Of a stretch of DNA of 64,000 nucleotides, positions 12,047 to 63,739 are shown in pieces. Location: positions 9,026 through 73,025 of the forward strand of contig CALXVM010000002.1 of the NCBI GenBank assembly GCA_944392105.1. The letters run 5' to 3'. The notes under the pieces were generated by a model. That model was given only the letters and a program-made list of their open reading frames with translations, searched no databases and was not told the origin of the DNA. The stretch is from an uncultured Clostridia bacterium. GTDB lineage: Bacteria > Bacillota > Clostridia > TANB77 > CAG-508. Position 1 is the first letter of the stretch. Each line of letters begins with the position of its first letter. The position numbers and the translations under genes are program-made.

Positions 12047-12195
12047 TTTTTTCTATAATATTACTTCTTTAAAGTAAATTATATAACTCTCCTTGCTGTT
12101 TAATTATTTAGGTTTTTAAAAGGCTTTACCTATAAACCTTTTACTTATCTGTTTTTATAAAGTTTAAAAAGCGTAGATTAAATTCTACGCTTATA

Positions 12196-12537
12196 TTACA
12201 TTATTCCTGGTATATTGTATTTTCCAAATTGAGCAGCTTGTGCACTGTCTACTTTTCTTAATGCTTCATTTACACATCCCAAAATTAAGTCTTGTAACAT
12301 TTCTACATCATCTGGGTCTACAACATCTTTTTGTATTTTTATTTCTTTTATTTCTTTTGAACCAGATACTTTTACACTTACAGCTCCACCACCTGCTGAT
12401 GCCTCGAATTCTTGGCTAGCAAGTTCTGCTTGTGATTTTTCCATATCTGCTTGCATTTTTTTTGCTTCTTTCATTAATTGTCCTATGTTCATACCTCCGA
12501 AGCCTCCGCCCATACCTGGGAATCCTCTTTTTGACAT
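12196..12537 (-). CDS. ybaB: nucleoid-associated protein YbaB/EbfC
   Basis: 113 aa; [15 protein letters not shown]...; lies between dnaX and recR. Confidence 0.9.
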
Positions 12538-35791: not shown

Positions 35792-36447
35792 TATAAAAAT
35801 TAAATATGAAGCAATTTTAAATAATTAATATTAATTATTTAAAATTAATTCAAAAAATAGAAAAGAAAAATATTTATTTATTTTTCTTTTTTTATTTTGT
35901 ATTTTTTTATAAATATAAATTAATTATTTTAATAAATAAATGAATTATTAATAATTAATTCATTTGAATATACTTATTTAAAAATAAATTAATTATTTTT
36001 AAAAGAATTTAATAAATAATATCTCTATAAATTATTATTTTATTGAATATTATTTATTTTAATTATTTATTATTTGTTTTATTTAAATTAAATTATATTT
36101 TATTATAAATATAATTTAATAATTTATTATTTATTTAATTAATAATTATATTTTTTATTTATTTTAAATTATTTTTAATATTAAAAATTAATTATAATAA
36201 TATATAGAATTTTTTATTTTTTTAAATAAATAAATTAATAAATTAATTAATTAATTTATTATATTATTTTATTTAATTATCTAATAATTTAATTTTATAT
36301 TAATAATTAAATTTTAATTTATAATAATTAACATTTTTATATTAGACAAACAAATCCAATTTAATTTTTTATATTTAATATACTTCTTTTATTAAGTTTC
36401 TTTTTTATCCTCTCTTATTATATCTTTACGCAAATAATACAAAGTCA

Positions 36448-36827
36448 TTTTGACAACTTTATTGTAACTCTTAACTATATAATTTTTCTATATCTATTTA
36501 AAGTTCCATTTCAGTCTGTATAAATAACAGTATGCTTTCAAATTCACTAAAAAACTTATATCAATAGTACTTTTTTAATTAATATTTAAAATGTTAGTAT
36601 TCCGTTTACTTTTGATTTATAATTATTAAAAAATTTTAAACAAATAAATAATTTTCTTAATGCATTTCCTTTTTATTATAATATTATTTAAAATTTTTCA
36701 CTTTTCTTATTTTTCTTCTTAATTATTTTTCTCTAATAACTATAATATCTATATAATCATTTTGACAATTTTTTATATTACATTTTATTTTAAAATTATA
36801 TATTATATTTTTTGTGTTATGTATACT
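36448..36827 (+). repeat. module copy M1
   Basis: Box A at 36448, C at 36601, B at 36760, T at 36817. A-C is 153 nt, C-B is 159 nt, B-T is 57 nt. Confidence 0.8.
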
Positions 36828-36938
36828 TTGTTTAATTTATGTAAATTTATAATCTTCCTAACTTTTATTTTATAATAGCAAAAAATTGAATAACATTATA
36901 TTGTATTTTTATGCATTTTTTTATAAAATATTATAAAA

Positions 36939-36992
36939 AAATTAAATAGTAAAAAAATAATATTTAATTTTTATTTTTTTACTATTTAATTT
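36939..36992. repeat. perfect 22-bp A/T-only inverted repeat (10-nt loop), 112 nt after box T of M1
   Basis: AAATTAAATAGTAAAAAAATAA (36939..36960) and TTATTTTTTTACTATTTAATTT (36971..36992). Confidence 0.8.
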
Positions 36993-37418
36993 TATATTTT
37001 ATTTTTTTATTTGATTTATAATTATTTAATTAATTAAATTTTATTATAATAAAAAAATTATTAATTAAATAATTATATTTTTTTATTAATAATTTTATAA
37101 TTATTTTTATAAATTTTATATTTTATTTTTTATACAATATTTTATAAATTAATATTATAATTATTTTTATAAACAAATTAATTATATTTAATATTTTATA
37201 TATAATTAATTTATTATTAATATAATTACTACTTTTACTTTTTATATAATTTTTTATTTTTATTTTAATTTTCATTTTTATAAATATTAATAATTACATT
37301 ACCTTTTATTTTTTAATTTTTTTAGTATATTATATATTAAGACACCACTTATAGTTAACATCTGTAAAAATTTTATTTCTTCTTTAGGACATAAACTTCA
37401 TTTTAAAAATCCATATCA

Positions 37419-37791
37419 TTTTGACAATTTAATATTTTTGTTTCCTCTTTTTTTATATTATTCTCTCATTTGTTATTATATTTCTATTACTTATTTTATA
37501 ATTTGTATCTACTTAAATATATTTTTCTTTTTCTATCCATTATTTATAGATTTTTCTAAACTACTGTAATCCGTTTAATTTATTTATTATATTTTATTAA
37601 ATTTGTATAAATATTTCTATTAAAATTGTTTTATTTTAATAATATGTTCTTATTAAAAAGCTGTATATATTAAATTTATAATACTTAATAATAAATTCTC
37701 CTTATCTATATAATATATAAATGTAATCTTTTTGACAATTTATTATTTATATGATTTCACTATTTATACATTAATAGATTATATGTATTCT
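37419..37791 (+). repeat. module copy M2
   Basis: A at 37419, C at 37570, B at 37730, T at 37781 (aTATGTATtCT). Spacings 151 / 160 / 51. Confidence 0.8.
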
Positions 37792-38397
37792 AATTTATAT
37801 TTTGAATTACGTAAACTTTTTTATCTTTATTTATTATTTAATGAAACTTAAACTTATCTCATTTTTTTGATTTGTATTATACATTTTTTAGTATGAAAAT
37901 TAATGTTAATTTTTTATATAAATTAATATTTAAAAAATAAATTTATATTGTTTAATTTTAATTAAATAATATTTAATTAAATAAATTAAATTTATTTAAT
38001 TTATTCAATTTATTTTTTAATAAACATTATTTAATTTATTTTTTTAAATTATTTTTTTATCATTTTATATATTATTTATTAAAATATAATAAATAATATA
38101 TTTTTTTATTTTTGTATTATATTTTTTTAGATTATTTTATTTTTAATATTTTTTTAATTAATTAATATCTCTAAAAAAATAAATTTAAAAATAAATATAA
38201 AAATAAAATATTTTATTTTTATATATTTTCTATAATTTTTATTTAATATTTTTATAAAAATAAACTAAAATTTTATATAGCATTTTTTCTAAAAATTGAT
38301 TGTAATATTTTCCATATTAAGTAAAATATACTTTTAATCTTACATGAGCTTTTTATATAAATGAATAATATTAATATTTTTTAACTCTATTTAATCA

Positions 38398-38784
38398 TTT
38401 TGACAATTTTATAAAAATATTTTCATACTATGTTCTTATTTTTTATAATAATTAATATTCTTTTCAGGCATTATATAATCTTTCCTCTCTTATAATATTT
38501 AAAATAAAAAATTTTGTACATATATCTATAATAAAAAAATATGAGAATTCCGTTTAGTTTTATATTATTTTTTTTATAAATTATAAAAAAAAATAATATA
38601 AATTTCTTTATCTTTTGTTAAATATATATGTTTTTTAGTAACTAATCTTTGTATAAATTTTATCAGTCATAAAAAAATTAATATTAGTTTATTTAATATT
38701 AATATCTTTTTGACAATTTTCTTGTTTTTATAATATCTCTATAATATAATTGTTTCTTCCCTTATTTTATATTTTATGTATACT
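38398..38784 (+). repeat. module copy M3
   Basis: A at 38398, C at 38549, B at 38708, T at 38774. Spacings 151 / 159 / 66. Confidence 0.8.
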
Positions 38785-38896
38785 ATATTATAATATTAAA
38801 TTCCAAAAATTTTATTTAATTTCTTTAAGTAATTTTTAATTAATATTTGAAACTTAATGACTTTATTTTAAATATTTTTTTATTTTCAAACATAAG

Positions 38897-38934
38897 AATA
38901 AAAATAAATTAATTTTAAAATATTTATTTTTATT
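38897..38934. repeat. perfect 13-bp A/T-only inverted repeat, 113 nt after box T of M3
   Basis: AATAAAAATAAAT and ATTTATTTTTATT. The loop is itself partly palindromic. Confidence 0.75.
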
Positions 38935-39336
38935 TATATTAATTTATTTTTATATAAAATTTTATAAAATCTTTTATATAAAATAAATTTCTCTCAAAAA
39001 TAATAAAAAAATATTAAACAATATTTTTTTATGAATTTATTTTTTTAAATAAAAATATAACTATTTAATTTTTTATTATTTATTTTTTGGAATTTTATTT
39101 TTATTTAATAATTTTATTATTTAAAATATTAATTTTATTATTTAATAAATAATTATTATTATTACTTTTTATATTTTTTAACACAAATTTTTTATAAAAA
39201 AATTTTATTATTATTATATTATAAATTTGTTACAATTTTATTTATCAAAATAAATAGTATTATCTTTATTGAATTCATAGTATAATTATTTCGTATTATA
39301 CATATAAATATTTAATAGCTAAATTTTATTATATCT

Positions 39337-39732
39337 TTTTGACAAACTTTCATGTTTTTTTGAATTTTAATCTTTCATCTTCAAAATTTTATAAATTTCT
39401 ATAATTTATCTATCTCACATTTTTAGTAGAAAATATTTTTATTATTTTTTTCTCCTTTTAGACTCTTTTATTATGATTTCTTTTATCCGTTTATTTTCAT
39501 AATCTATTTTTTCATTTTTCTATATTTGGCAAATCTATTTTCATATTTTTATTAAAAAACAATTTTATAAAATGAATTTTATATCTTATCATATTTTTTT
39601 ATATTTTCAAATTTTTCTATATTTCTATAATCTTTTCTTAATCATTTTGGCAATATTTTTTTATATTTCTTATTACTTAATATTAGCTAACATATCATGA
39701 AAAAATCTTTTTTTCGTAAAATTATGTATACT
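39337..39732 (+). repeat. module copy M4
   Basis: A at 39337, C at 39486, B at 39645 (TTTTGGCAA), T at 39722. Spacings 149 / 159 / 77. Confidence 0.8.
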
Positions 39733-39819
39733 TTTTTATAAATTTTATTATCTACGTTTTAAAAAATTTTTATAATATAATTGTAATTTTTTTATAATAA
39801 AATTTATAAAATGCCATTA

Positions 39820-39859
39820 TATATTTATTAAAAAATATACAAATTTTTTAATAAATATA
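39820..39859. repeat. perfect 17-bp A/T-only inverted repeat (6-nt loop), 88 nt after box T of M4
   Basis: TATATTTATTAAAAAAT (39820..39836) and ATTTTTTAATAAATATA (39843..39859). Confidence 0.8.
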
Positions 39860-39954
39860 ACTTAATTTTAAATAATTTAATTTAATTTGATTTTATTATT
39901 TAATTTATTATTATTTTTTTTATTTATATTCTATTATTTTTTAATTAATTAATT

Positions 39955-40020
39955 ATTTATTTATTTATTTATTTATTTTATTATTTATTATTTATTATTT
40001 ATTATTTATTTATTTATTTA
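39955..40020. repeat. A/T microsatellite: (ATTT)n then (TTATTTA)n
   Basis: About six ATTT units, then about four TTATTTA heptamers, then (TTTA)3. No G/C. Confidence 0.75.
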
Positions 40021-40618
40021 ATTAATTATTTATTTGTTTATTTTATCATTTAATTATTTATCTATTCATTTTTTATCATTTTATTAATTAATTATTTATT
40101 TTTTATATTATCCTGTTGTAATATTCTTCTTGTACTTTTTAATATTTTTTACTTATTAATCTTTTGAATTATAAAATAATGTTTATTTTTTATTCTATAA
40201 AATTCTAAATATTAAAAAAATAAATTAATAATTATTGTTTCTATAAATAAAAATTAAATATATAATAATTATTAATTATTTTTTATTAATTATTATAAAA
40301 ATATAACTATAATAAAATAATAAAATTATAAAAATAATTATAATAGAATTCATCTTTTTATAATTTTATTATAATTAATTATTAAAAAAAATTAATTAAA
40401 TAATTAATTTATAATATTTTTTAATAATATTTAATAAATTAAAATATTATTCATTACAATATAATAATTTTTATATTACATATAAATTATTATATTTGTT
40501 AACTTTATGTGTTACTATATTTAATCTAATTATTTTTTATTTAACCTTTTATAACTTATTCTGTTAATTTCATAAATAATATTAGAATTATATTTCTTTT
40601 TCTTCTTGTTTAATATCT

Positions 40619-41017
40619 TTTTGACAAATACATTTTGTATTTCTTTTATTTTTATAATTCTACTATGTTTTTTTCATTTATGTAACTATTATTTTTTTAT
40701 TAAATTCAAAATTTTTACAACTCTTCTACAAATTTTATCTTTTGTTAAAGTTTTTGTATCATATACAAATCCGTTCATTTTAGTGTTATAAATTTTAATA
40801 TTTTTTCCTCAAAAACTGTAAAAATAAAGTTAGCTTTATTTTGATTAATCTTTCTATATTTATATTATTCTTCTGGCACTCTTTTATATATTATCAAAAA
40901 CAAAATTGAGATTATTCATTGTTTGACCTTATTAACAATATTTCATACTGCTTTACATTTTATCACAAATATATATTCATACTTTCTAATCTCTCGATTT
41001 TCAATATTATGTATACT
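40619..41017 (+). repeat. module copy M5 (box B degenerate)
   Basis: A at 40619, C at 40770 (TCCGTTCA), B at 40921 (gTTTGACCt), T at 41007. Spacings 151 / 151 / 86. Confidence 0.7.
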
Positions 41018-41044
41018 TTTTTCTATCTTATAATTCTTTCAAAA

Positions 41045-41160
41045 TTTATTTATTTTAATTATTTATTTATTTATTTATTTTAATTAATTATTTATTTATT
41101 TATTTTATTATTTTATTATTTATTATTTTATTTATTTATTATTTTATTTATTTTATTTTA
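41045..41160. repeat. A/T microsatellite tract (TTTA / TTATT / TTATTTA units) between M5 and M6
   Basis: Visible run of ATTTATTTATTTATTT...TTATTTTATTATTTATTATTTTATTT. Confidence 0.7.
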
Positions 41161-41318
41161 CTTTTTATTAATACTATTTTTAATATAATTTTAAATTATA
41201 TTTTTTAATAAATTAAATATTTATTTATTTTACTATATTTAATTATTATTTAATAATAATTATGCATTATTATTTTAATATAAAAATATCAATAAAAGTA
41301 TTTACATAATGTAGATAT

Positions 41319-41696
41319 AGTATACATAATGCTTTTAAAATACTTCTTATAATTAAAGGCATATCTTTATATTTGATTTGTCAAAAAGGTAATATATAAT
41401 ATAAAAAAACGATCATTACATTTTTCTATATAAGCATTATTAATTTATTTGTTAAAATATAAATTGAGATTATTTATATTTTACATTAAAAACTATTCAA
41501 GATTAGATTTCAATTTAATAAAAATACAATTAAAATCCAAACGGAATATAGAATATTCAAAAATAATATATGGTTTACAATTTTTCTATCTTTTTTCTAT
41601 ATAAAAATATGAATACTTATAAAAAATATATAAGCTATTATTTTAATTATAAGTTTCTATATATAAAAAATAATTATTGCCTCAAATTTGTCAAAA
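41319..41696 (-). repeat. module copy M6 (inverted)
   Basis: Read on the minus strand: A at 41696, C at 41545 (TCCGTTTG), B at 41386, T at 41329. Spacings 151 / 159 / 57. Confidence 0.8.
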
Positions 41697-41825
41697 TAGT
41701 TGTATTATGAAAATTATCTTAGATATTTTATTAAAATATTTTTTCAAAGTAAATTGACCCAATTAAAAAAGTACTTAACAATTTCATTCTTATAATAATT
41801 ATTAATTATTTATTGTTTAATTAAT

Positions 41826-41930
41826 TTATTATTTATTATTTATTATTTTATTATTTATTATTTATTATTTATTATTTATTATTTTATTTATTTATTATTT
41901 TATTTATTTTATTTTTTTATTTATATAACA
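41826..41930. repeat. A/T microsatellite tract dominated by TTATTTA heptamers, between M6 and tRNA-Ser
   Basis: TTATTTATTATTTATTATTTTATTATTTATTATTTATTATTTATTATTTATT... Confidence 0.7.
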
Positions 41931-41977
41931 TAAAAGAAAGATATAATGTGTTTAAAACATTATATCTTTCTTTTTTA

Positions 41978-42426: not shown

Positions 42427-42933
42427 TTATTTTGAGTTTACAGCCTTTTCTATGGCTTCCTTTTCTTCATCTGATAATACATATTCTGATTTTCCGTCTT
42501 TTACAGGTTTAGAATATATATTTGAATTGTCTCTTGAATAAATGCCATTTAAAACAACTCCATTATTATTATTATCTAATAATGCTAAAGTAAAACTTAA
42601 GTTACTTCCTACATCTTTAAAGGCATTATATCTTACAATACCTACTTTTCGTATACAAGTATCAACAGTTTTATCTAATCTTTCACAATATTGTATTATT
42701 TCCTTATTCAAATCTTCTACTTTTTGTACTCTTTCAATATAACTTTTTAAGCTTTCATCTATATCTTTACCATTGCCTAATTTTTTCATAAATTCGGAAT
42801 AATCATGTTTTATTCTATTTAGTTTTAAGTAATTAAATACTAATAAAATAATTGATAAGATGGATATTATAAATAGTATTATTAAAAATGTATCTGTCTT
42901 TAAAAACTCTACAATATTACTCATTGCCCTCAT
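42427..42933 (-). CDS. DUF4446-family protein
   Basis: N-terminal TM helix; 168 aa. Overlaps the parB stop, the usual position downstream of spo0J in Clostridia. Confidence 0.65.
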   Translation of the reverse strand: MRAMSNIVEFLKTDTFLIILFIISILSIILLVFNYLKLNRIKHDYSEFMKKLGNGKDIDESLKSYIERVQKVEDLNKEIIQYCERLDKTVDTCIRKVGIVRYNAFKDVGSNLSFTLALLDNNNNGVVLNGIYSRDNSNIYSKPVKDGKSEYVLSDEEKEAIEKAVNSK

Positions 42934-43789
42934 TCCTTATTAAATCTAATATTCTTTCCAACTCCTCATTAGATGTATATTTTATTATTATTTTACCGCT
43001 TTTTTGTTTTGCATCTAATTTTACTTTTGTTCCGAAAAAATTTTGGAATGTATCTTCTATATCTCTATATATTGCTTCATATTTTTTATTTTGTTTTTCT
43101 ATAACCTTTTTATTTTTTACTCTTTGCTCTATATCTCTTACAGAATCCCCTGTTTCGATTATTTTTAATGCCATTTTATATTGTTTGTCCGGATCTTCAT
43201 AATTTAAAAGCTGTCTACAATGTCCTTCAGAAATTTTGCCTTCTCTTGCTAAGTTTTGTACTCTTTCGTCTAAATTTAATATTCTCAAATTATTGGATAT
43301 TGTACTTCTACCAATTCCTACAGTCTCACTTAATTCCTGTTGAGTCATTCCATATTCATCTAATAATTGTCTAAATCCTAAAGCTTTATCTATAGGGTTT
43401 AAATCTTCTCTTTGAATATTTTCTATTAATGCTATTTCTTTATTCTTTCTTTCATTGCTTTCTCTTACTAAGCAAGGAATTTCCATAAGTCCTGCCTTTT
43501 TAGCAGCTCTCCATCTTCTTTCACCAGCTACAATTTGATAATAATTATCCATTTTTGTAACTATTATTGGTTGTATAACACCATATTTCTTTATAGAAGT
43601 TGCTAATTCTTCTATACTCTCAGAGTTAAAGGTTCTTCTAGGTTGGTCTCTATTAGGCTCTATATCTATTAGTTTTAAGTTTTGTACTATTTCCTCTCCA
43701 TTTTGTAATTTTATTTCTTCTTCCTTAGTTAATTGATTATCATTAAATAAGGCTTCTAGACCTTTTCCTAATCCTGTTTTTTTAACCAT
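42917..43789 (-). CDS. spo0J: chromosome partitioning protein ParB/Spo0J
   Basis: GERRWRAAKKAG ParB box plus an HTH. Confidence 0.9.
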   Translation of the reverse strand: MVKKTGLGKGLEALFNDNQLTKEEEIKLQNGEEIVQNLKLIDIEPNRDQPRRTFNSESIEELATSIKKYGVIQPIIVTKMDNYYQIVAGERRWRAAKKAGLMEIPCLVRESNERKNKEIALIENIQREDLNPIDKALGFRQLLDEYGMTQQELSETVGIGRSTISNNLRILNLDERVQNLAREGKISEGHCRQLLNYEDPDKQYKMALKIIETGDSVRDIEQRVKNKKVIEKQNKKYEAIYRDIEDTFQNFFGTKVKLDAKQKSGKIIIKYTSNEELERILDLIRNEGNE

Positions 43790-51679: not shown

Positions 51680-53032
51680 ATGAATAATAAAGAATTAAGC
51701 GAACTACTAACAAAAGCAAAAGATCTTTTAAAAGATGAAGTAACTAAAATATCTTATGAAACATGGATTAAAGATTTAGAAATCGAAAGTGCTGAAAATG
51801 GTAATATTGTATTAGTTGCAAATACAGTTTTTCAAAAAGATTCTATTATGTCTAGATACTATGATTTGTTTAAAAATACATTTAGATTTCTAACAAACAA
51901 AGAATGGGACATTAATGTTATCTTAAAATCAGATGATAGTACTCCTATGCAGGAGACTTCTAATTTAGAGCAATCAACAAATTCTTATGTAAACCCAAAT
52001 TCAAACCTTAATCCAAAGTATACTTTTGATACATTTGTTGTTGGTAACAATAACAGATTTGCTCATGCTGCAGCATTAGCAGTTGCTGAAGCTCCAGCAA
52101 AATCTTACAATCCACTTTTTGTATATGGGGGATCTGGGTTAGGAAAAACACATTTAATGCATGCTATCGGAAACGAAGTTCTAAAAAATAATAAAACATT
52201 AAATGTATTATATGTAGATTCTGAAAAATTTACTAATCAACTAATAAATGCAATAAAAGATTCAAAAACAGAGCAATTTAAAAATAAATACAGAAATATA
52301 GACGTATTATTAATTGATGATATTCAATTTATAGCAGGAAAAGAAAGAATACAAGAAGAATTTTTCCATACATTTAATAGTTTACATGGTAGTGGAAAAC
52401 AAATAATTATATCTAGTGATAGACCTCCAAAAGATATTCCTTTACTAGAGGATAGATTAAAATCACGTTTTGAGTGGGGATTAATTGCGGACATTTCTAA
52501 TCCTGACTATGAAACACGTTTTGCTATATTAAAAAAGAAAGCTCAATTAGATAACATATATATTGATGATGAAATTTTATCTAATATTGCTACAAAAATA
52601 GATTCAAATATTAGGGAGTTGGAGGGGACTTTAAATAGACTTATTGCAACATCCTCTTTAACACAAGCACCAATTACTATGGAAATGTCAGAAAGAGCAA
52701 TAAATGATGTAGTAAAAAATAAAGAAAAAGTTCTTTCTTATGATTTAATACAAGAAACTGTAGCAAAATATTTTAATATAACTGTTAATGATTTAAAAGG
52801 GTCTAGACGTTCAAATGATATTGCCCTTCCAAGACAAATTGCTATGTATCTATGTAGGACAATTGCACAAATGTCTACAAATGCTATAGGCTCTTGTTTT
52901 GGTAAAAGAGATCACTCAACAGTACTACATGCTTGTAATAAAATAGAGAAAGATATAAAACAGGATAATAATTTAAAAATGGTTGTGGATAGTGTGAAAA
53001 ACTTAATCACTTCCAGTGATAATAACAAGTAA
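51680..53032 (+). CDS. dnaA: chromosomal replication initiator protein DnaA
   Basis: GGSGLGKTHLMHAIG AAA+ Walker A and the C-terminal DNA-binding domain (HSTVLHA). Confidence 0.97.
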   Translation: MNNKELSELLTKAKDLLKDEVTKISYETWIKDLEIESAENGNIVLVANTVFQKDSIMSRYYDLFKNTFRFLTNKEWDINVILKSDDSTPMQETSNLEQSTNSYVNPNSNLNPKYTFDTFVVGNNNRFAHAAALAVAEAPAKSYNPLFVYGGSGLGKTHLMHAIGNEVLKNNKTLNVLYVDSEKFTNQLINAIKDSKTEQFKNKYRNIDVLLIDDIQFIAGKERIQEEFFHTFNSLHGSGKQIIISSDRPPKDIPLLEDRLKSRFEWGLIADISNPDYETRFAILKKKAQLDNIYIDDEILSNIATKIDSNIRELEGTLNRLIATSSLTQAPITMEMSERAINDVVKNKEKVLSYDLIQETVAKYFNITVNDLKGSRRSNDIALPRQIAMYLCRTIAQMSTNAIGSCFGKRDHSTVLHACNKIEKDIKQDNNLKMVVDSVKNLITSSDNNK

Positions 53033-57782: not shown

Positions 57783-57810
57783 AGTTTAAAAATTTAATAA
57801 AAAATAGTAC

Positions 57811-57819
57811 TTATCCACA
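57811..57819 (+). promoter_or_regulatory. consensus DnaA box just after gyrB
   Basis: TTATCCACA. TGTGGAAAA follows at 57835..57843. Confidence 0.5.
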
Positions 57820-57902
57820 GAATAAGAACAACATGTGGAAAAACATATTAAAAACTAACAAAAAAGTTAATAAATTAAAGAAATAAATTTATTAAATATT
57901 TT

Positions 57903-57936
57903 AACAGCCGAGATGATTTTATTCATCTCGGCTGTT
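57903..57936. terminator. strong 14-bp GC-containing hairpin downstream of gyrB
   Basis: AACAGCCGAGATGA - TTTTAT - TCATCTCGGCTGTT. Confidence 0.55.
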
Positions 57937-58605
57937 ATCAGTAAAGCCTATATTAATCTTCAGCTAAAACTAATATTCCAAATATCTAACCTAATATATA
58001 TTACTATATAAATAAGCTATTAATCTAAAATATTAATCAGTCGCTTGAATACAAATATATTCATAATAACCATATTCATCCCTGTGGGACTAATAACAAT
58101 CATTATCAAATATAAGAATACTCGTAACTTTGAATATATTTTACATATTTTCAACTGTAGAATAAATAGAGGATAAAGAGCAAATGAAAGAGAAAAAAAC
58201 ACAAAAGTTACAGCTTAAATACAAAAAATATACTCGCATCGCCGACAATTAATAATCTAAAATAAAACTATTAATTATCTTTGCTCGAACAATATAAAAC
58301 TATAAACTAATCTTATAAAGCTCTTATTTCAACTAATATAAACCTTATATTCTTATTATGTAACAAAATAAAAAAATTATTCAAAAATATATAAATAAAA
58401 TAAAAAAATAAATAAATATAAAATAATATAAATAAAGAAAAATTAAAAAATTAATTTAAATTAATCAAAATTAGTTAAAATTTTAATACGTTAACAAATA
58501 AAAAGGAATAAATAATTCCTATATATGCATTACGAAAAGCATAGAAAATACTATAAAAAACAGCAAAAAGCGAGAAAAATGTCGAAAAAAGTCAAACGAA
58601 AAAAC

Positions 58606-58634
58606 TTGACTTATATAAAAAAAGTAAATATTAT
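58606..58634 (+). promoter_or_regulatory. sigma-A type promoter of the VirB4 gene string
   Basis: TTGACT (58606..58611), 17-nt spacer, TATTAT (58629..58634). Confidence 0.5.
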
Positions 58635-58655
58635 ATACGAAAGGAGGTAAAGAAA

Positions 58656-59219
58656 ATAAAAAAAAATAAACTTTCAGTTCAAGAATGGCTACCGTTTGAA
58701 AAAATATTAGAAAATGGTATTATAAAAATTAACAAAACAACTTATGTAAAAATAGTAAATGTAAAGCCAATTAATTTTAATCTTAAATCTGAATTAGAAA
58801 AAGAATCTATATTAAATTCTTACAAAATTTTTTTAAAATCCTGCGATTTTGATTTCCAAATATTAATCCAAAGTAAGAAAGAAGATTTAAATAAACATAT
58901 AGAAGAAATAAAAAAAGTTGAGGATGAACCCAATATAAAAGAAATATCAAATAAATACATTAATTATATAAAATCACTTAACCATGACAAAAAATCATCT
59001 TCAAAAAATTTTTATATTATTCTAAGATATAAAAATAATAACGAAAAAGATGACAATATAGAAAATTATGCTATAGAAGAACTAAACGAAAAATATTTTA
59101 AAATTAAAGATTGCTTATCTAGATGTGGAAATATAGTTTTATCAAATAATACAGCTAAAAGTACTTTGGAAATATTATATTCTTTTTTTAATACAAGAAT
59201 TAATTTGAATTTAATGTAA
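58656..59219 (+). pseudogene. N-terminal domain fragment of a Gram-positive VirB4 (Tn916 ORF16-like), with no canonical start codon
   Basis: Open frame 58557..59219 has no in-frame ATG or GTG, and its only in-frame TTGs lie in the last 18 codons. AAGGAGG (58641..58647) is followed after 8 nt by ATA. Encodes ...LSVQEWLPFEKILENGIIKINKTTYVKIVNVKPINFNLKSELEKESILNSYKIFLKSCDFDFQILIQSKKEDL... Confidence 0.6.
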
Positions 59220-59243
59220 AACTTTATTCTTTAAGGAGGTTAA

Positions 59244-61073
59244 ATTATTTTTTATTCTAAAAGAAAAAATAAACAAATAAAAACAGAAGAAAAATTTAAT
59301 TTTTTAGAAGGAACTTTTTCAAATAAAGATTATTTAAGTCCATCTTATATTAATTTAAACAATCCAAAATATATAGAAATAGATAATATGCTTTTTTCTG
59401 TTATATTAGTAACTAATTATAACCGAGAACAATCGGAATTAATTTTAAAATCTTTAATAGATACTAATATAAATATTAATATATCTATCTTCTATGAAAA
59501 ACAAGATCCATATAAAACAATAAGAAATTTAACTTACCATATAGGAAATGTAGGAGTAGACTTAAAAGGAAAAAATCAAAATAGACAAGATATTGATATT
59601 GCAGCATTTACATATAATGATGCAAAATACATAAGAAAAGAAATGCAAGTAAATAATGAGGACTTATATTTTTTATACATATATGTAAGTACTTTTTCGA
59701 CAGATGAAAAAGAATTAGAATACTTATTAAATAAAATAGAAGGAATTTTGCAAAGCAAAGGCATGCAAACCATAAGAGCATATTTTAGACAAGAGCAAGG
59801 ATTTAAAGCAATATTACCTTTAATGGAAAATAGTATAGATGTTAAAGAAGCAGCAAAAAGAAATGTATTAACTAGTGGACTACTTGCTACATACCCATTT
59901 ATTTCTTCGGCAATATTTGATGAAACAGGAATATTTATAGGTACAAATATATATAACAATTCTTTAGTATTTATAGATAGATATGATAAAAATAAATATA
60001 AAAATGCAAATATATGTATTTTTGGAACAAGTGGAGCAGGAAAATCTTTTTATACAAAATTATTAATTTTAAGATGTAGATTATTAGGAATTGAGCAATA
60101 TATTATAGATCCGGAAAGAGAATATAATAAATTATGTAAAAATTTAAATGGATTATTATTAAAATTAGGACATAGTTCAGACTCATACATAAATATATTT
60201 GATATTAGAAAAGAAAGTTTAGAAGAAGGGGAAGAAGGATATTTAGCAAATAAAATAAGTAAATTAATTGGCTTTTTTAATTTAATATTCGGAAATATTA
60301 ACGAAGAAGAAAGAGCTTTACTAGAAGAAAAATTAATAGAGGTATATAAATTAAAAGGCATAACTTTTGATGACAATAGTTTATTTAAAAAAGAAAATGG
60401 AAAAATAAATATAAAACCAGTATTTAAAGATACATATGATATGCCAATATTAGAAGATTTTTATAATATTTTAAACGATAGCCGTACAAAAACTTTTAAA
60501 ACAAAATTAATTCCCTTTGTAAAGGGATCATTAAAATTTTTTAATAATTACACTAATGTAATTATAGATAATAAACTTATTGTAGCAGACATATACGAAT
60601 TAGGTGAAGAAAACTTAAAATATGCGATGTGGGTATGCATAGACCTTTTTTGGGACTTAATAAAAAAAGATAGAAACATAAAAAAAGCAATATACCTAGA
60701 TGAAATATGGAGATTAATTGGAGTAACTTCAAATAAAGATGTAGCTAGTTTCATTTATAAAATATTTAAAACAATTAGAAAATATGGAGGAAGTGGAGTA
60801 GCTATAACACAAGATGTTTCAGACTTATTTAGTTTAGAAGATGGAACATATGGAAGAAGTATATTAAATAATTCAGAAATAAAAACATTTTTTTCCTTAG
60901 AAGAAGAAAATATAAAAGTTTTAGAAAAATATTCAAACTTATCAGAAAAAGAAAAAATAGAAATAAAATCATTAAAAAGAGGAGAATGTTTAATGTTTGT
61001 AGGAGGAGAACATATACTAACTAACATAGAAGCAGCAGAATTTGAAAAAGAAATAATAGAAGGGAGAAAATAA
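59244..61073 (+). CDS. VirB4/TrsE-family type IV secretion ATPase (central and C-terminal part)
   Basis: GTSGAGKSF Walker A, DPEREY, LDEIW Walker B, AITQD. The frame is open from 59244. AAGGAGG (59233..59239) is followed by ATT at 59244 and 59247. The first ATG (59388) would remove conserved N-terminal sequence. Confidence 0.8.
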   Translation: MIFYSKRKNKQIKTEEKFNFLEGTFSNKDYLSPSYINLNNPKYIEIDNMLFSVILVTNYNREQSELILKSLIDTNININISIFYEKQDPYKTIRNLTYHIGNVGVDLKGKNQNRQDIDIAAFTYNDAKYIRKEMQVNNEDLYFLYIYVSTFSTDEKELEYLLNKIEGILQSKGMQTIRAYFRQEQGFKAILPLMENSIDVKEAAKRNVLTSGLLATYPFISSAIFDETGIFIGTNIYNNSLVFIDRYDKNKYKNANICIFGTSGAGKSFYTKLLILRCRLLGIEQYIIDPEREYNKLCKNLNGLLLKLGHSSDSYINIFDIRKESLEEGEEGYLANKISKLIGFFNLIFGNINEEERALLEEKLIEVYKLKGITFDDNSLFKKENGKINIKPVFKDTYDMPILEDFYNILNDSRTKTFKTKLIPFVKGSLKFFNNYTNVIIDNKLIVADIYELGEENLKYAMWVCIDLFWDLIKKDRNIKKAIYLDEIWRLIGVTSNKDVASFIYKIFKTIRKYGGSGVAITQDVSDLFSLEDGTYGRSILNNSEIKTFFSLEEENIKVLEKYSNLSEKEKIEIKSLKRGECLMFVGGEHILTNIEAAEFEKEIIEGRK

Positions 61074-61074
61074 T

Positions 61075-62403
61075 ATGAAAACTGTTATGACAGCAGTAGC
61101 AAATCCTATAATAAATGAAAAATTAAAAAATGAAACAAACATACAAATTATAGGCAATGATATACAATATAAAGAAGGAGTAATAGAAGCATTAGAAAAA
61201 AATAAAGAAATAAATTATTTAATATTAAGCGATATATTAATAGGAAAAGAATTATTAATAGAATTAATAAAAAAAATTAAAATAATAAATAAAAATATTA
61301 AAATATTAGTAATATTAACAGAAGAAAATAAAAAAGAATGCGATAATTTAATATCTTGCGGAGTAGAAAAAATATTCTATAATAATAATGTAGAAATTAA
61401 AGAAATTGTAAAAGTAATTAATGAAGAAAATGAAACAGATAAATTAATAGAAGAAATTAATTCTTTAAAAAAAATAATAATAGAAAATAATAACAAAAAT
61501 AATTTAGAAAAAAATAAAAAAACACAAAATAAAATAAAAAAAGAAAATAAATTAAAAAATAAATTATTAATATTTAATAAAATAAAAATAATAAATAATA
61601 TAAAAAATAAAATAAATAAATATTTACCTAAAAAATTAATTAATAAAAATAATAATATAAAAAGTGAAGTTATATCTGTTTTAGGTCCAGCAGGAGTGGG
61701 GAAGAGTATTTTTACAATTAATTTAGCTAATTCATATGTTTATTCTAAAAATAAAATTTTAATTATAGATTTTGATATCTTAAATAATAGTCTACATACA
61801 ATTTTAGGTCTAAAAAAATATTCCAAAATAATAAGAGAAAAATTAAAAAATAATAATTTAATAAATAGCAAAATAAATATTAAAGAATTAACTATTAAAA
61901 TAACAAATAAAATAGACTTAATTTCTGGAATAAATTTATTATTTGATTCAAAATATAAAATAAGTAGTGAAAAAATATATAATATAATTAATGAATTAAA
62001 AGAAAAATATGAAATAATAATTATAGATAATTCTGCTGAATGCTTTTTTGATTATACAAAAAATATTATAGAAAATAGTAATATTAATATATTTATTACA
62101 GAAGCAAATTTATCTGAAATAAAAAAATCAAAAAATTTATTAAATATATATATCAATAAATGGAATATTAATAAAAATAAAATAAATATATTATTTAATA
62201 AATTTAATAAAAATAGTATAGACATAAATATATTAAAAAATATTTTTAATGAATTTAATATATTAGGAAAATTAAATTTTGATGATAAATACAATTTAAT
62301 AATAAATAAAAATGGAATAACTTGTGATAATAAAATTATGAAAGAATATATAAATATAAATAAAAAAATAGAAGAAGAAAATTTAACTAAAATAAAAAAT
62401 TAA
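61075..62403 (+). CDS. ParA/MinD-superfamily ATPase with receiver-like N-domain (TadZ/CpaE-like architecture) and an N/K-rich low-complexity linker
   Basis: VLGPAGVGKS deviant Walker A at about aa 200. The N-terminal ~120 aa alternate in a beta-alpha pattern. Residues ~135-195 are nearly all N, K, I and L. Confidence 0.65.
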   Translation: MKTVMTAVANPIINEKLKNETNIQIIGNDIQYKEGVIEALEKNKEINYLILSDILIGKELLIELIKKIKIINKNIKILVILTEENKKECDNLISCGVEKIFYNNNVEIKEIVKVINEENETDKLIEEINSLKKIIIENNNKNNLEKNKKTQNKIKKENKLKNKLLIFNKIKIINNIKNKINKYLPKKLINKNNNIKSEVISVLGPAGVGKSIFTINLANSYVYSKNKILIIDFDILNNSLHTILGLKKYSKIIREKLKNNNLINSKINIKELTIKITNKIDLISGINLLFDSKYKISSEKIYNIINELKEKYEIIIIDNSAECFFDYTKNIIENSNINIFITEANLSEIKKSKNLLNIYINKWNINKNKINILFNKFNKNSIDINILKNIFNEFNILGKLNFDDKYNLIINKNGITCDNKIMKEYININKKIEEENLTKIKN

Positions 62404-62818
62404 AAAATAAAATAAATTAATATTAATTAATATATATGTTTATTTATTAATAATAAAAATTAAATTATTATTTTCATAAAAATATTTTTTTGGAATTTTA
62501 TTAAATAAACAAAAAATAAATAAAATAAAAAATCTTATAAAAAAATAAAAATAACAATGATTAAAAAAATAAAATATTAATTAAAATAAAATTATTATTT
62601 TTATAAAAATACTTTTTTAATTTATTAAATAAAATAAAAAAATAATTAAGAGAAAATATAAAATATAAAAAATAATAATTAATAAAAAATTAATTTAAAA
62701 AATAATTTAAAATAAAAATATATAATTTAAAAGATATAAAAAACTAAAAAATATAAATTTGTTTTTTTAAATAGTAAAAAAGTAAATAGAAGAACAAGGT
62801 TACATAAATATAAAACTA

Positions 62819-63195
62819 TGTATACATAATAATGGAAAATACAAGATTTGAAAAAAGTAAAAATATATATTTGAATTTACCAAAAAGACAAAATAGAATA
62901 TTTAGAATATAAATAAAAAATAAGGAAGAGATTATAAACTTATATTTTAAAATGATGAATAACGTTAATTAGTAATAAAGGTATGTAAAAAAATATATTT
63001 TTTAAACGAAAATATACGAAAAAAATAAAACAAAAACAAACGGATCTCTAGGAATTATAAAAATGGATAAAAATAATAAAAATTAAAAACGTATCAATAA
63101 AATATAGGTATATATGTAAATTATTTAGTTACATATAAAATGTATATAAAAAATAAAAGAAGAAAATTTTAAAAAACAATCTTAAATTGTCAAAA
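62819..63195 (-). repeat. module copy M7 (inverted, right of oriC)
   Basis: Read on the minus strand: A at 63195, C at 63044 (TCCGTTTG), B at 62885 (TTTTGGTAA), T at 62829 (TTATGTATACA). Spacings 151 / 159 / 56. Flanked by A/T-only spacers at about 62404-62760 and about 63350-63700. Confidence 0.75.
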
Positions 63196-63571
63196 TGGTA
63201 AAAATATATAGCGAAAAATAAGAAAAGAAAAATTATAAATTGTTTATAAAAAATTTGTATATTTTGAAAATTGTATATTAACTTTTTAAAAAACTTTTAT
63301 ACAATAAATTAAACTTATACATAAAAAATAGTTATATTAAAAATATATTTTAAATTAATAATTATAAAAAATAATAATTAATAAAAAAATAATTATTAAA
63401 ATTTTAAAAATAAAAAAATTAAAATAAAAATAATTAAAGATTAAATATAAAAAATAAATTAAAATAAAAATATAAAAAAATAAAATATATTAAAAATAAA
63501 TAATTATTTTTTTAATATATTTAAAATAAATTTTTATAATTATTTTTTAAATTAAATATTAAAATTTCAAA

Positions 63572-63606
63572 ATTAAAAATTAAAAATTAAAAATTAAAAA
63601 TTAAAA
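63572..63606. repeat. tandem heptamer (ATTAAAA) x5
   Basis: ATTAAAAATTAAAAATTAAAAATTAAAAATTAAAA. Confidence 0.8.
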
Positions 63607-63739
63607 ATAATTATTATTTATATAATTACAATTAAATAAATAATAATTAAAAACAATAATATTAATTAATATTATAAAAAATTTTAATCATTATCTATTA
63701 AAATATAAAAATAAAATCAACGAAAGAGGTGTTTTAAAT

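Follow-up and report, generated by a model that had tools for sequence, protein, structure and literature searches.

The 64-kb window analysed here (the whole stretch of DNA, numbered from its first letter) is the oriC region of a Firmicute of low guanine-plus-cytosine (GC) content, with the minimum of the cumulative GC skew at the zone of dnaA and the DnaA boxes. It contains a gene-free stretch at 35792..41977 in which a module of about 380 bp recurs, and this module family is the subject of our analysis. The stretch is origin-proximal, as the original prediction had held, since dnaA starts at 51680 and canonical DnaA boxes occur at 51.6 and 53.2 kb. Its GC content is 9–12%, compared to ~27% in the flanks, and modules at 13–19% GC alternate with A/T spacers that consist of (ATTT)n/(ATTATTT)n-type microsatellites. 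Every module carries four motifs, boxes A, C, B and T, in fixed order and orientation. A profile hidden Markov model based on motif-anchored modules detected exactly seven copies in the window (E 1e-17 to 1e-25; next match at E ~8), six at 36.4–41.7 kb and a seventh at 62.8–63.2 kb on the opposite side of oriC. Window modules are designated M and those of a sister species (L036/L037) Y; L0xx labels refer to related loci or assemblies in the comparison. The features of the array and of the solitary copy are as follows.

35792..41977: gene-free stretch, whole, bordered by a DUF2229 gene and tRNA-Ser(GCT)
36448..36847, plus strand: M1, with box A 36448-36456, C 36601-36608, B 36760-36768, T 36817-36827 and T2 36837-36847 (TTATGTAAATT); nhmmer E=3.8e-24; ortholog Y1 in L037
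37419..37817, plus strand: M2, with A 37419-37427, C 37570-37577, B 37730-37738, T 37781-37791 (ATATGTATTCT, degenerate) and T2 37807-37817 (TTACGTAAACT); nhmmer E=2e-21; ortholog Y2 (pair score 170)
38398..38784, plus strand: M3, with A 38398-38406, C 38549-38556, B 38708-38716 and T 38774-38784; nhmmer E=1e-25; ortholog Y3
39337..39732, plus strand: M4, with A 39337-39345, C 39486-39493, B 39645-39653 (TTTTGGCAA) and T 39722-39732; nhmmer E=2e-17; ortholog Y4
40619..41017, plus strand: M5, with A 40619-40627, C 40770-40777 (TCCGTTCA), B 40930-40938 (TATTAACAA) and T 41007-41017; nhmmer E=4e-23; ortholog Y5 has TATTGACAA at C+161
41299..41696, minus strand: M6, inverted, with A 41688-41696, C 41538-41545 (TCCGTTTG), B 41378-41386, T 41319-41329 and T2 41299-41309; nhmmer E=9e-22; ortholog Y6, inverted too
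62797..63195, minus strand: M7, solitary, with A 63187-63195, C 63037-63044, B 62877-62885 (TTTTGGTAA), T 62819-62829 and T2 ~62797-62807; nhmmer E=1e-21
35870-36340, 36930-37280, 37900-38210, 38920-39260, 39850-40110, 41040-41250 and 41800-41925: A/T microsatellite spacers
41932..41974, minus strand: intrinsic terminator of the tRNA-Ser operon, marking the right border and lying outside the module family

The A and B boxes are identical in kind and asymmetric; they form direct repeats ~310 bp apart with the consensus TCWTTTTGACAAWTT, which reads AWTTGTCAAAA on the A-rich strand. Box C (consensus WTCCGTTYRnTTTT) is located no more than ~4 bp from the midpoint between A and B, and box T (consensus TTATGTATACT) follows on the B side, at a distance that is kept less strictly. 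M1, M2, M6 and M7 additionally have a fifth motif 20–26 nt beyond box T, designated T2 (TTAYGTAAA), which is absent from M3, M4, M5 and the K-type modules described below. Compared to 100 dinucleotide shuffles, the words are clearly overrepresented in the window: TTTTGACAA occurs 13 times (1.97 expected), TCCGTTYA 8 times (1.18 expected), and the composite A-N(138-146)-TCCGTT-N(148-156)-TTTTGRYAA 6 times (0.00 expected). The original prediction had listed six modules of four motifs each, and all its motif coordinates were reproduced with small corrections. Its box sequences were amended to TTTTGGCAA for box B of M4, TCCGTTCA for box C of M5 and TCCGTTTG for box C of M6. Box B of M5 had been placed at 40921, which is probably wrong: the ortholog of the sister species puts the box at 40930 (TATTAACAA compared to TATTGACAA), resulting in a C-to-B distance of 160 instead of 151 nt. 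Six modules and four motifs thus stand, with a seventh module, on the minus strand, beyond the range reported. Besides this additional module, the original prediction had overlooked that the modules have positional orthologs in other species and that both loci are lineage-specific insertions.

The distances between the boxes had been proposed to be near-invariant. Across 17 modules from at least five related species, the A-to-C distance was 151.0±1.18 and the C-to-B distance 159.4±0.94 nt, which bears this out. The B-to-T distance is looser (64±9, range 51–78 in the 17 modules) and falls into classes of ~51–58, 66–67 and 76–78 nt. Outside the motifs, paralogous modules could not be aligned although length is held, as already suspected by eye: free MAFFT and pairwise alignments gave near-random identity, and paralogs were compared by motif-anchored stacks instead.

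Sister species Y, in which the flanking genes are 88% identical in nucleotides, has five direct modules and one inverted module at the same locus. Y1–Y6 are positional orthologs of M1–M6, with pair scores of 105–170 compared to ~40 for non-orthologs and an identity of 68–70%. Between these orthologs only 11 of 222 motif sites differ (5%), whereas 702 of 2584 sites between and beside the motifs do (27%; Fisher P=1.2e-16), and the net change in length of the A–C and C–B segments is only 0–3 nt. The substitution rate of the filler (0.26–0.28 per site) equals that of flanking non-coding DNA. The conservation profile of the orthologs peaks at A, at C (extending over ~30 nt) and at B only, and k-mer discovery yielded no further position-specific motif in the modules. 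Because the motifs differ at 5% and the filler at 27% of sites while segment lengths change by 0–3 nt, we concluded that purifying selection acts on the motifs and their spacing, that is, on ~40 of 380 positions (~10%) and two distances, and that the filler is neutral. The earlier claim of selection rather than drift is thereby supported. The motifs are asymmetric and 9–11 bp long, the size of protein recognition sites.

As had been predicted, the region holds no credible open reading frame (ORF). No ORF longer than 61 aa occurs in 35792-41977, the longest ORF is not common to the copies, and stop codons fill all six frames of every module. The segment lengths vary by 1–2 nt, which speaks against a conserved reading frame, as already argued from the length differences. 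Coding on either strand was rejected, including ORFs that start at the box B TTG and continue across box T, as only 9 of 14 modules maintain the frame relation and the ORFs are not conserved. Long stop-free runs on the T-rich strand arise from composition alone. The original prediction had offered protein-binding sites or a family of structured RNA genes as explanations. The second was rejected: Rfam gave no matches in the region at the gathering threshold or at E≤1, folding z-scores on both strands ranged from -2.7 to +1.3, centred near 0 and inconsistent among copies, and were no better than shuffles, and RNAalifold predicted no pairs on 18 modules on either strand. The first holds as far as selected sites are concerned, and protein binding is the reading that we infer from them. 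OLE, GOLLD, ROOL and raiA RNAs and small RNA arrays likewise extend over hundreds of nt in gene-free DNA beside tRNA genes, but unlike OLE, GOLLD, ROOL and raiA the modules, at 13–19% GC, lack any Rfam match (E≤1), folding or consensus pairs.

Known classes of repeats were examined in the same way. Insertion sequence (IS) elements and miniature inverted-repeat transposable elements (MITEs) were rejected, as the modules contain no ORF, the A and B boxes are direct rather than inverted, terminal inverted repeats are missing and genome, metagenome and viral scans placed the family at two loci only. Pneumococcal BOX elements, RUP, REP/BIME, ERIC and MITEs resemble the modules in being non-coding, genomically repeated and built of ordered sub-boxes. 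However, these elements are 100–200 bp long, alignable over their full length and dispersed in tens to hundreds of copies, with inverted repeats or hairpin potential, whereas the modules occur in 7 copies at 2 loci with ~10% of positions conserved, no fold signal and no terminal repeats. A CRISPR (clustered regularly interspaced short palindromic repeats) array also combines short conserved words with unrelated intervals of near-constant length in an A/T-rich gene-free stretch, but is defined by identical repeats of 23–55 nt, unique spacers of 21–72 nt, and cas genes or a leader. Here, the conserved words are 9–15 nt long, of three or four kinds and non-palindromic, the intervals measure 142–153 nt and, for the A/T tracts, 500–900 nt, the would-be spacers are orthologous between species, and the window map shows no cas-like ORFs nearby. 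This reading was rejected as well. No phage, plasmid or viral similarity was found in searches, and no description of the element was found in the literature on the clade, the motif words or SpoIIID.

The binding sites suggested earlier, those of Spo0A, ParB and DnaA, were not supported. DnaA boxes (≤1 mismatch to TTATNCACA) are absent from 35792-41977 and 62404-63739 and cluster at 51.6, 53.2 and 57.8 kb. No parS site with ≤2 mismatches to the 16-bp palindrome TGTTNCACGTGAAACA was found in the window or in 10 related loci, and the modules have no recurring G/C-containing palindrome in common. A typical ParB (ParB_N, HTH_ParB, ParB_C) is encoded by parB at 42917-43789 and ParA is encoded as well, yet no canonical parS is found around them. 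For Spo0A, the A/B box has an invariant A in place of contact base G5, as detailed below. Three further candidates were tried and rejected: a LytTR-type box C (no second repeat at 21 nt), the A/B boxes as -35 elements (no conserved -10 at 16–18 nt on either strand), and GTATAC as an avoided restriction site (16 found, 10 expected, so no avoidance). Taken together, the modules fit no described repeat, RNA-gene or binding-site-cluster class tested, be it IS, MITE, CRISPR, Rfam, phage, plasmid, DnaA-box, parS or 0A, in agreement with the original prediction.

By the flanking DUF2229 protein, the closest named relative of the window species is 'Clostridium sp. CAG:273' (94% identity), and the window species was found again in many gut metagenome assemblies. 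Public collections were scanned with the three-box pattern, and matches of low GC with box T present were taken as true. Every true match in two public collections maps to two loci, 10–16 kb either side of oriC: the array 3' of the DUF2229 gene and a single copy 3' of a ParA-like gene, between gyrB and gyrA. The scan of genome contigs yielded 13 matches, mostly chance singles in unrelated taxa, with L012 alone relevant. Three of the 13 are located in metagenome-assembled genomes (MAGs) of Pirellulales (L010, L011, L015), in stretches of 34–35% GC; these probably reflect one conserved gene by chance and are unrelated to the modules. In strains of the window species the modules are near-identical, and the only differences are indels in the A/T microsatellite spacers.

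In the CAG:273-like species K (L020, a complete long-read genome), the array locus consists of six head-to-tail units of ~1.1 kb, ~89% identical to each other, in which the B-to-T distance is always 68. The copy number within this lineage depends on the assembly, with 6 in L020, 3 in L052 and 1 in the short-read assemblies L019 and L051, where the single copy represents collapse. A more distant species, V, harbours K-like units that are 85–90% identical, whereas the flanking gene is only 77% identical. This difference, together with the variable copy number in K, indicates that the array can undergo homogenisation and perhaps exchange. Only the motifs and the spacing are common to K-type and window-type modules. 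Within the array region of L020 (L020:11341-20820), the array is separated from DUF4446 by a gene for an IS30-like transposase (L020:19391-20476) and by a 179-aa ORF without annotation.

Outgroups have other content at the array locus: AIM24 and patatin genes in L021, tRNA-Ser genes directly after DUF2229 in L022 and a different gene in L049. In L022, two tRNA-Ser genes follow DUF2229, and the DNA beyond (12130-12420 onward) is T-rich, partly of 12% GC, non-coding and devoid of module motifs, so that this locus may have contained A/T-rich DNA without genes before the modules arose. At the second locus, the whole group shares a conserved cluster of gyrB, a VirB4-like gene, a ParA-like gene, a ~241-aa gene and gyrA. 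Only 2–16 nt and no module separate the ParA-like gene from its neighbour in L054 and L055. The window species, L053 and L012/L034/L056, by comparison, carry an insertion of ~1.05–1.3 kb of A/T DNA with a single module, placed precisely between stop codon and ribosome-binding site; in the window, this insertion measures 1.3 kb and harbours M7, with the ParA-like gene (61075-62403) on one side and a 246-aa gene (from 63740) on the other. M7 thus has same-locus counterparts in L012/L034/L056 and L053 and none in L054 or L055. The L053 copy retains a spacing of 159/149. The solitary copies of the window species and L012 are unalignable outside the motifs, whereas the neighbouring genes are 88–90% identical. 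As judged from these comparisons of gene order, both loci are lineage-specific insertions confined to the subclade related to Clostridium sp. CAG:273.

The modules combine short conserved sites, constrained in order, orientation and spacing, with unconstrained filler, which are three of the features expected of a cis-acting multi-site DNA platform, the fourth being occupancy by proteins. We tentatively favour the reading that each module is such a protein-binding platform in the origin region, which we consider a realistic possibility but short of probable. Protein readers that work on the DNA itself are the most economical reading of the sites, and the geometry of the loop and the role in the cell are inferred. 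Sequence-specific proteins would occupy the sites and form one higher-order complex per module. Most likely, the same factor would bind at A and B and be bridged over a loop of ~310 bp with C at its apex; such a loop is suggested by two identical sites ~310 bp apart with C within ~4 bp of the midpoint. The six complexes on one side of oriC and the one on the other might then serve the origin region, either by organising or anchoring it in a centromere-like manner or by titrating a regulator.

Some established systems offer partial precedents. ParB-parS and B. subtilis RacA-ram resemble the modules in that a cis site recurs several times to either side of oriC, at distances of no more than a few percent of the chromosome; here, ~1 kb separates the array from the parB-parA operon, and the solitary copy is adjacent to a gene of the ParA family. 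In contrast, parS and ram are single palindromes of 14–16 bp, whereas the modules are ~380 bp long with four asymmetric motifs, fixed polarity and 150–160-bp spacing. Similarly, datA, DARS and DnaA-box clusters are non-coding origin-linked loci with several protein sites and a bending-protein site between them, in a set arrangement that is needed. However, the modules do not have a DnaA box (≤1 mismatch), and normal TTATCCACA boxes cluster at oriC.

Several observations weigh against the platform. No binding protein was found, the A/B box differs from the Spo0A core in a base that Spo0A contacts, and the modules contain neither DnaA box nor parS. The spacing varies by ±2–3 bp, ~1/4 helical turn, and thus does not maintain strict helical phasing, and a TT period of 10.0–10.25 bp in the W, X and K modules (z ~5) was not reproduced in the orthologous Y and V set. 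T2 and T together are sigma-A-like and M7 is oriented toward the downstream gene, both of which favour a transcriptional explanation. In addition, relatives without modules live without them, so that the function is not universal, and the K/V lineage conserves the whole unit of ~850 nt at 85–90%, which motif-only selection does not explain.

The main rival, possible but on the whole unlikely, is that the modules are promoter-bearing non-coding transcription units, in which T2 and T make up a promoter of the sigma-A type, possibly overlapped by an operator, and transcription runs along the A-rich strand. An unstructured A-rich RNA would then contain boxes B, C and A at about +55–85, +215–245 and +365–395, where an RNA-binding protein would recognise them as linear motifs, or else they would serve as roadblocks or operators in the DNA; six such units would make up the array, and M7 would also be the promoter and leader of the 246-aa gene. 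On the A-rich strand, T2/T indeed reads TTTACA-18-CATAAY (-CATAAT, -CATAAC or -CATAAA), resembling a sigma-A promoter, in five ortholog groups, and the pair occurs at the same offset in M1, M6, Y6, X7 and the L053 copy. However, T2 is missing in M3, M4, M5 and the K type, the final T of the -10-like hexamer is often absent, and promoter-like matches are not enriched in the region (103 compared to 115±11 in shuffles). The M7 insertion split a presumed operon junction, to judge from the short gap in L054/L055. Because it cut off the 246-aa gene from the promoter of its upstream partner, this gene needs a new promoter, and M7 points the right way. The A-rich strand is also co-directional with replication in six of the seven modules, as is the case for genes. 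On the other hand, no intrinsic terminators were found on this strand, the T-rich strand having only trivial A/T hairpins; there is no fold and no covariation, and the tight spacing of 151/159 nt is not obvious for linear RNA motifs. Moreover, in the inverted M6 and Y6 the GC skew goes with the chromosome strand and not with the orientation of the module, as expected of untranscribed neutral filler, and module-intrinsic strand asymmetry was consequently rejected as a sign of transcription.

Alternatively, the modules could represent a satellite-like or non-autonomous mobile or recombination element, which we regard as improbable. A recombinase, transposase or resolvase encoded elsewhere would act on the motifs, with A and B as accessory or arm-type repeats and T/T2 as the crossover core, and unequal exchange would amplify and homogenise the units. 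Consistent with this, both loci are insertions with respect to the outgroups, one beside tRNA-Ser genes and one in an operon junction, the K unit is a ~1.1-kb tandem repeat of 3–6 copies, 89% identical within arrays and closer to that of V (85–90%) than the flanking gene is (77%), and an IS30-like gene adjoins the array in L020. The intasome at attP, Tn3 res, cer/psi and dif also combine a directly repeated site type with a separate core and an intervening architectural site at constrained distances, but they extend over 120–250 bp, are present in one copy per element and have a recombinase gene close by; no inverted pair, whether fully dif-like or of the core type, was found in the modules, and the flanks of the window are free of recombinase genes. 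T/T2 loosely resembles a XerD-type half-site. A dif/Xer site is a 28-bp site composed of an 11-bp XerC arm, a 6-bp centre and an 11-bp XerD arm, inverted. The best 28-mers had 5–6 mismatches to the consensus, arm matches with ≤1 mismatch number >100 in the window, which makes the likeness not significant at this composition, and no full dif-like site occurs, so that this candidate was rejected. Terminal inverted repeats, hairpin ends or a recognised target duplication were not found in the modules, no collection yielded copies outside the two loci, and there were no viral, plasmid or phage matches. Above all, six copies have been in place since the W/Y split, with the motifs kept in each while the rest decays, as dead selfish copies would not do. 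A selfish or mobile origin may explain the arrival at two loci and the expansion of the array, but not the motif-specific conservation in six long-resident copies.

A special case of the platform would be a sink or regulatory array for a sporulation regulator, in which A and B are variant Spo0A sites or SpoIIID-type sites (..GACAA..) that couple replication or chromosome handling to sporulation. The oriC of B. subtilis and phage phi29 bear functional 0A boxes, and SpoIIID binds asymmetric GACAA-containing sites as a monomer. With TGTCAAA, the A/B box matches the 0A core TGTCGAA in 6/7 bases, and the host encodes gerM (Germane domain) and is therefore probably a spore-former. As in the 0A-box clusters of B. 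subtilis oriC and phages phi29 and Nf, the near-core motif thus occurs in a probably spore-forming Firmicute, but the sites of a module are 310 bp apart and not clustered at promoters or origins, and boxes C and T are unrelated to 0A boxes and stay unexplained. The 0A core is contacted at G2, C4 and G5. Every clear copy of the A/B box reads TGTCAAA, and none of ~30 boxes has a G at the deviating position, which is contact base G5; a G5A change cuts the affinity of C. difficile Spo0A ~10-fold (PMC3485338). The canonical TGTCGAA occurs elsewhere in the window, e.g. at 58580, indicating that the canonical site is in use in this genome. A canonical Spo0A array was thus rejected, and we consider the involvement of a sporulation regulator in any such form doubtful, with little chance of being correct.

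Least credible is that the modules are decayed pseudogenes or neutral remnants of an old duplication, with eye-catching G/C words and a spacing that persists through rare indels: the filler does evolve like flanking non-coding DNA and the T-rich strand gives long stop-free runs by composition, but the same four motifs persist in 17 modules with saturated filler, the B-to-T distance and the spacers change length while A-to-C and C-to-B do not, frame-breaking length differences and stops occur in all frames, and the five-fold lower substitution of the motifs (P=1e-16) refutes this explanation to our satisfaction.

The genes around the two loci are those of an origin region.

42.4-51.2 kb, minus strand: rnpA-yidC-jag-trmE-gidA-gidB-parA-parB-DUF4446
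from 51680, plus strand: dnaA (start 51680), dnaN, recF, gyrB
59388-61073: VirB4/TraG-P-loop-like ATPase, between gyrB and gyrA
61075-62403: ParA/MinD-like protein with a long N-terminal extension, between gyrB and gyrA
63740 onward: 246-aa protein without Pfam match, 3' of the M7 insertion, between gyrB and gyrA

gyrB and gyrA are separated by ~9.5 kb (window 57783-63739 and L035:4399-6864), and the intervening cluster is not a recent island, since it is conserved in the relatives L053-L056. The non-coding region after gyrB (57800-58620) contains an inverted pair of DnaA boxes at 57811 and 57834 (the latter with one mismatch) and a G+C-rich hairpin at 57908-57938, followed by ~400 nt of moderately G+C-containing sequence; the 0A box at 58580 lies just upstream of a TTGACT promoter-like site. 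This region is ~88–90% identical by BLAST to that of the L012/L034 species and has no Rfam match. Upstream of the VirB4-like gene, a stop-free frame of ~190 codons (58650-59220) has no ATG, GTG or TTG at its beginning and hence was missed by the ORF listing; it may have an unusual start or be a frameshifted gene.

In its fullest form, the platform reading would make the modules previously undescribed, origin-flanking nucleoprotein 'landing pads' of ~380 bp. Built of three or four different recognition sites at set distances, these might act in place of parS-type centromeres or alongside them when the origin region is organised, anchored or segregated, possibly during sporulation, and would be of recent origin, with spread to a second locus and tandem expansion, in a lineage of uncultured, genome-reduced gut Clostridia. 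We put this forward as speculation that is rather unlikely to hold in every part. For genome work on the clade, arrays of 10% GC break or collapse short-read assemblies and hence are missing from most of its MAGs; the microsatellite spacers are a cause of assembly breaks and also provide strain-variable markers. If the modules are functional DNA platforms, they would represent a rare case in which the grammar of a non-coding element, its order, polarity and distances, is legible from evolution. They would then point to sequence-specific factors acting at the origin in widespread uncultured human-gut Clostridia related to CAG:273, a group without canonical parS near oriC.

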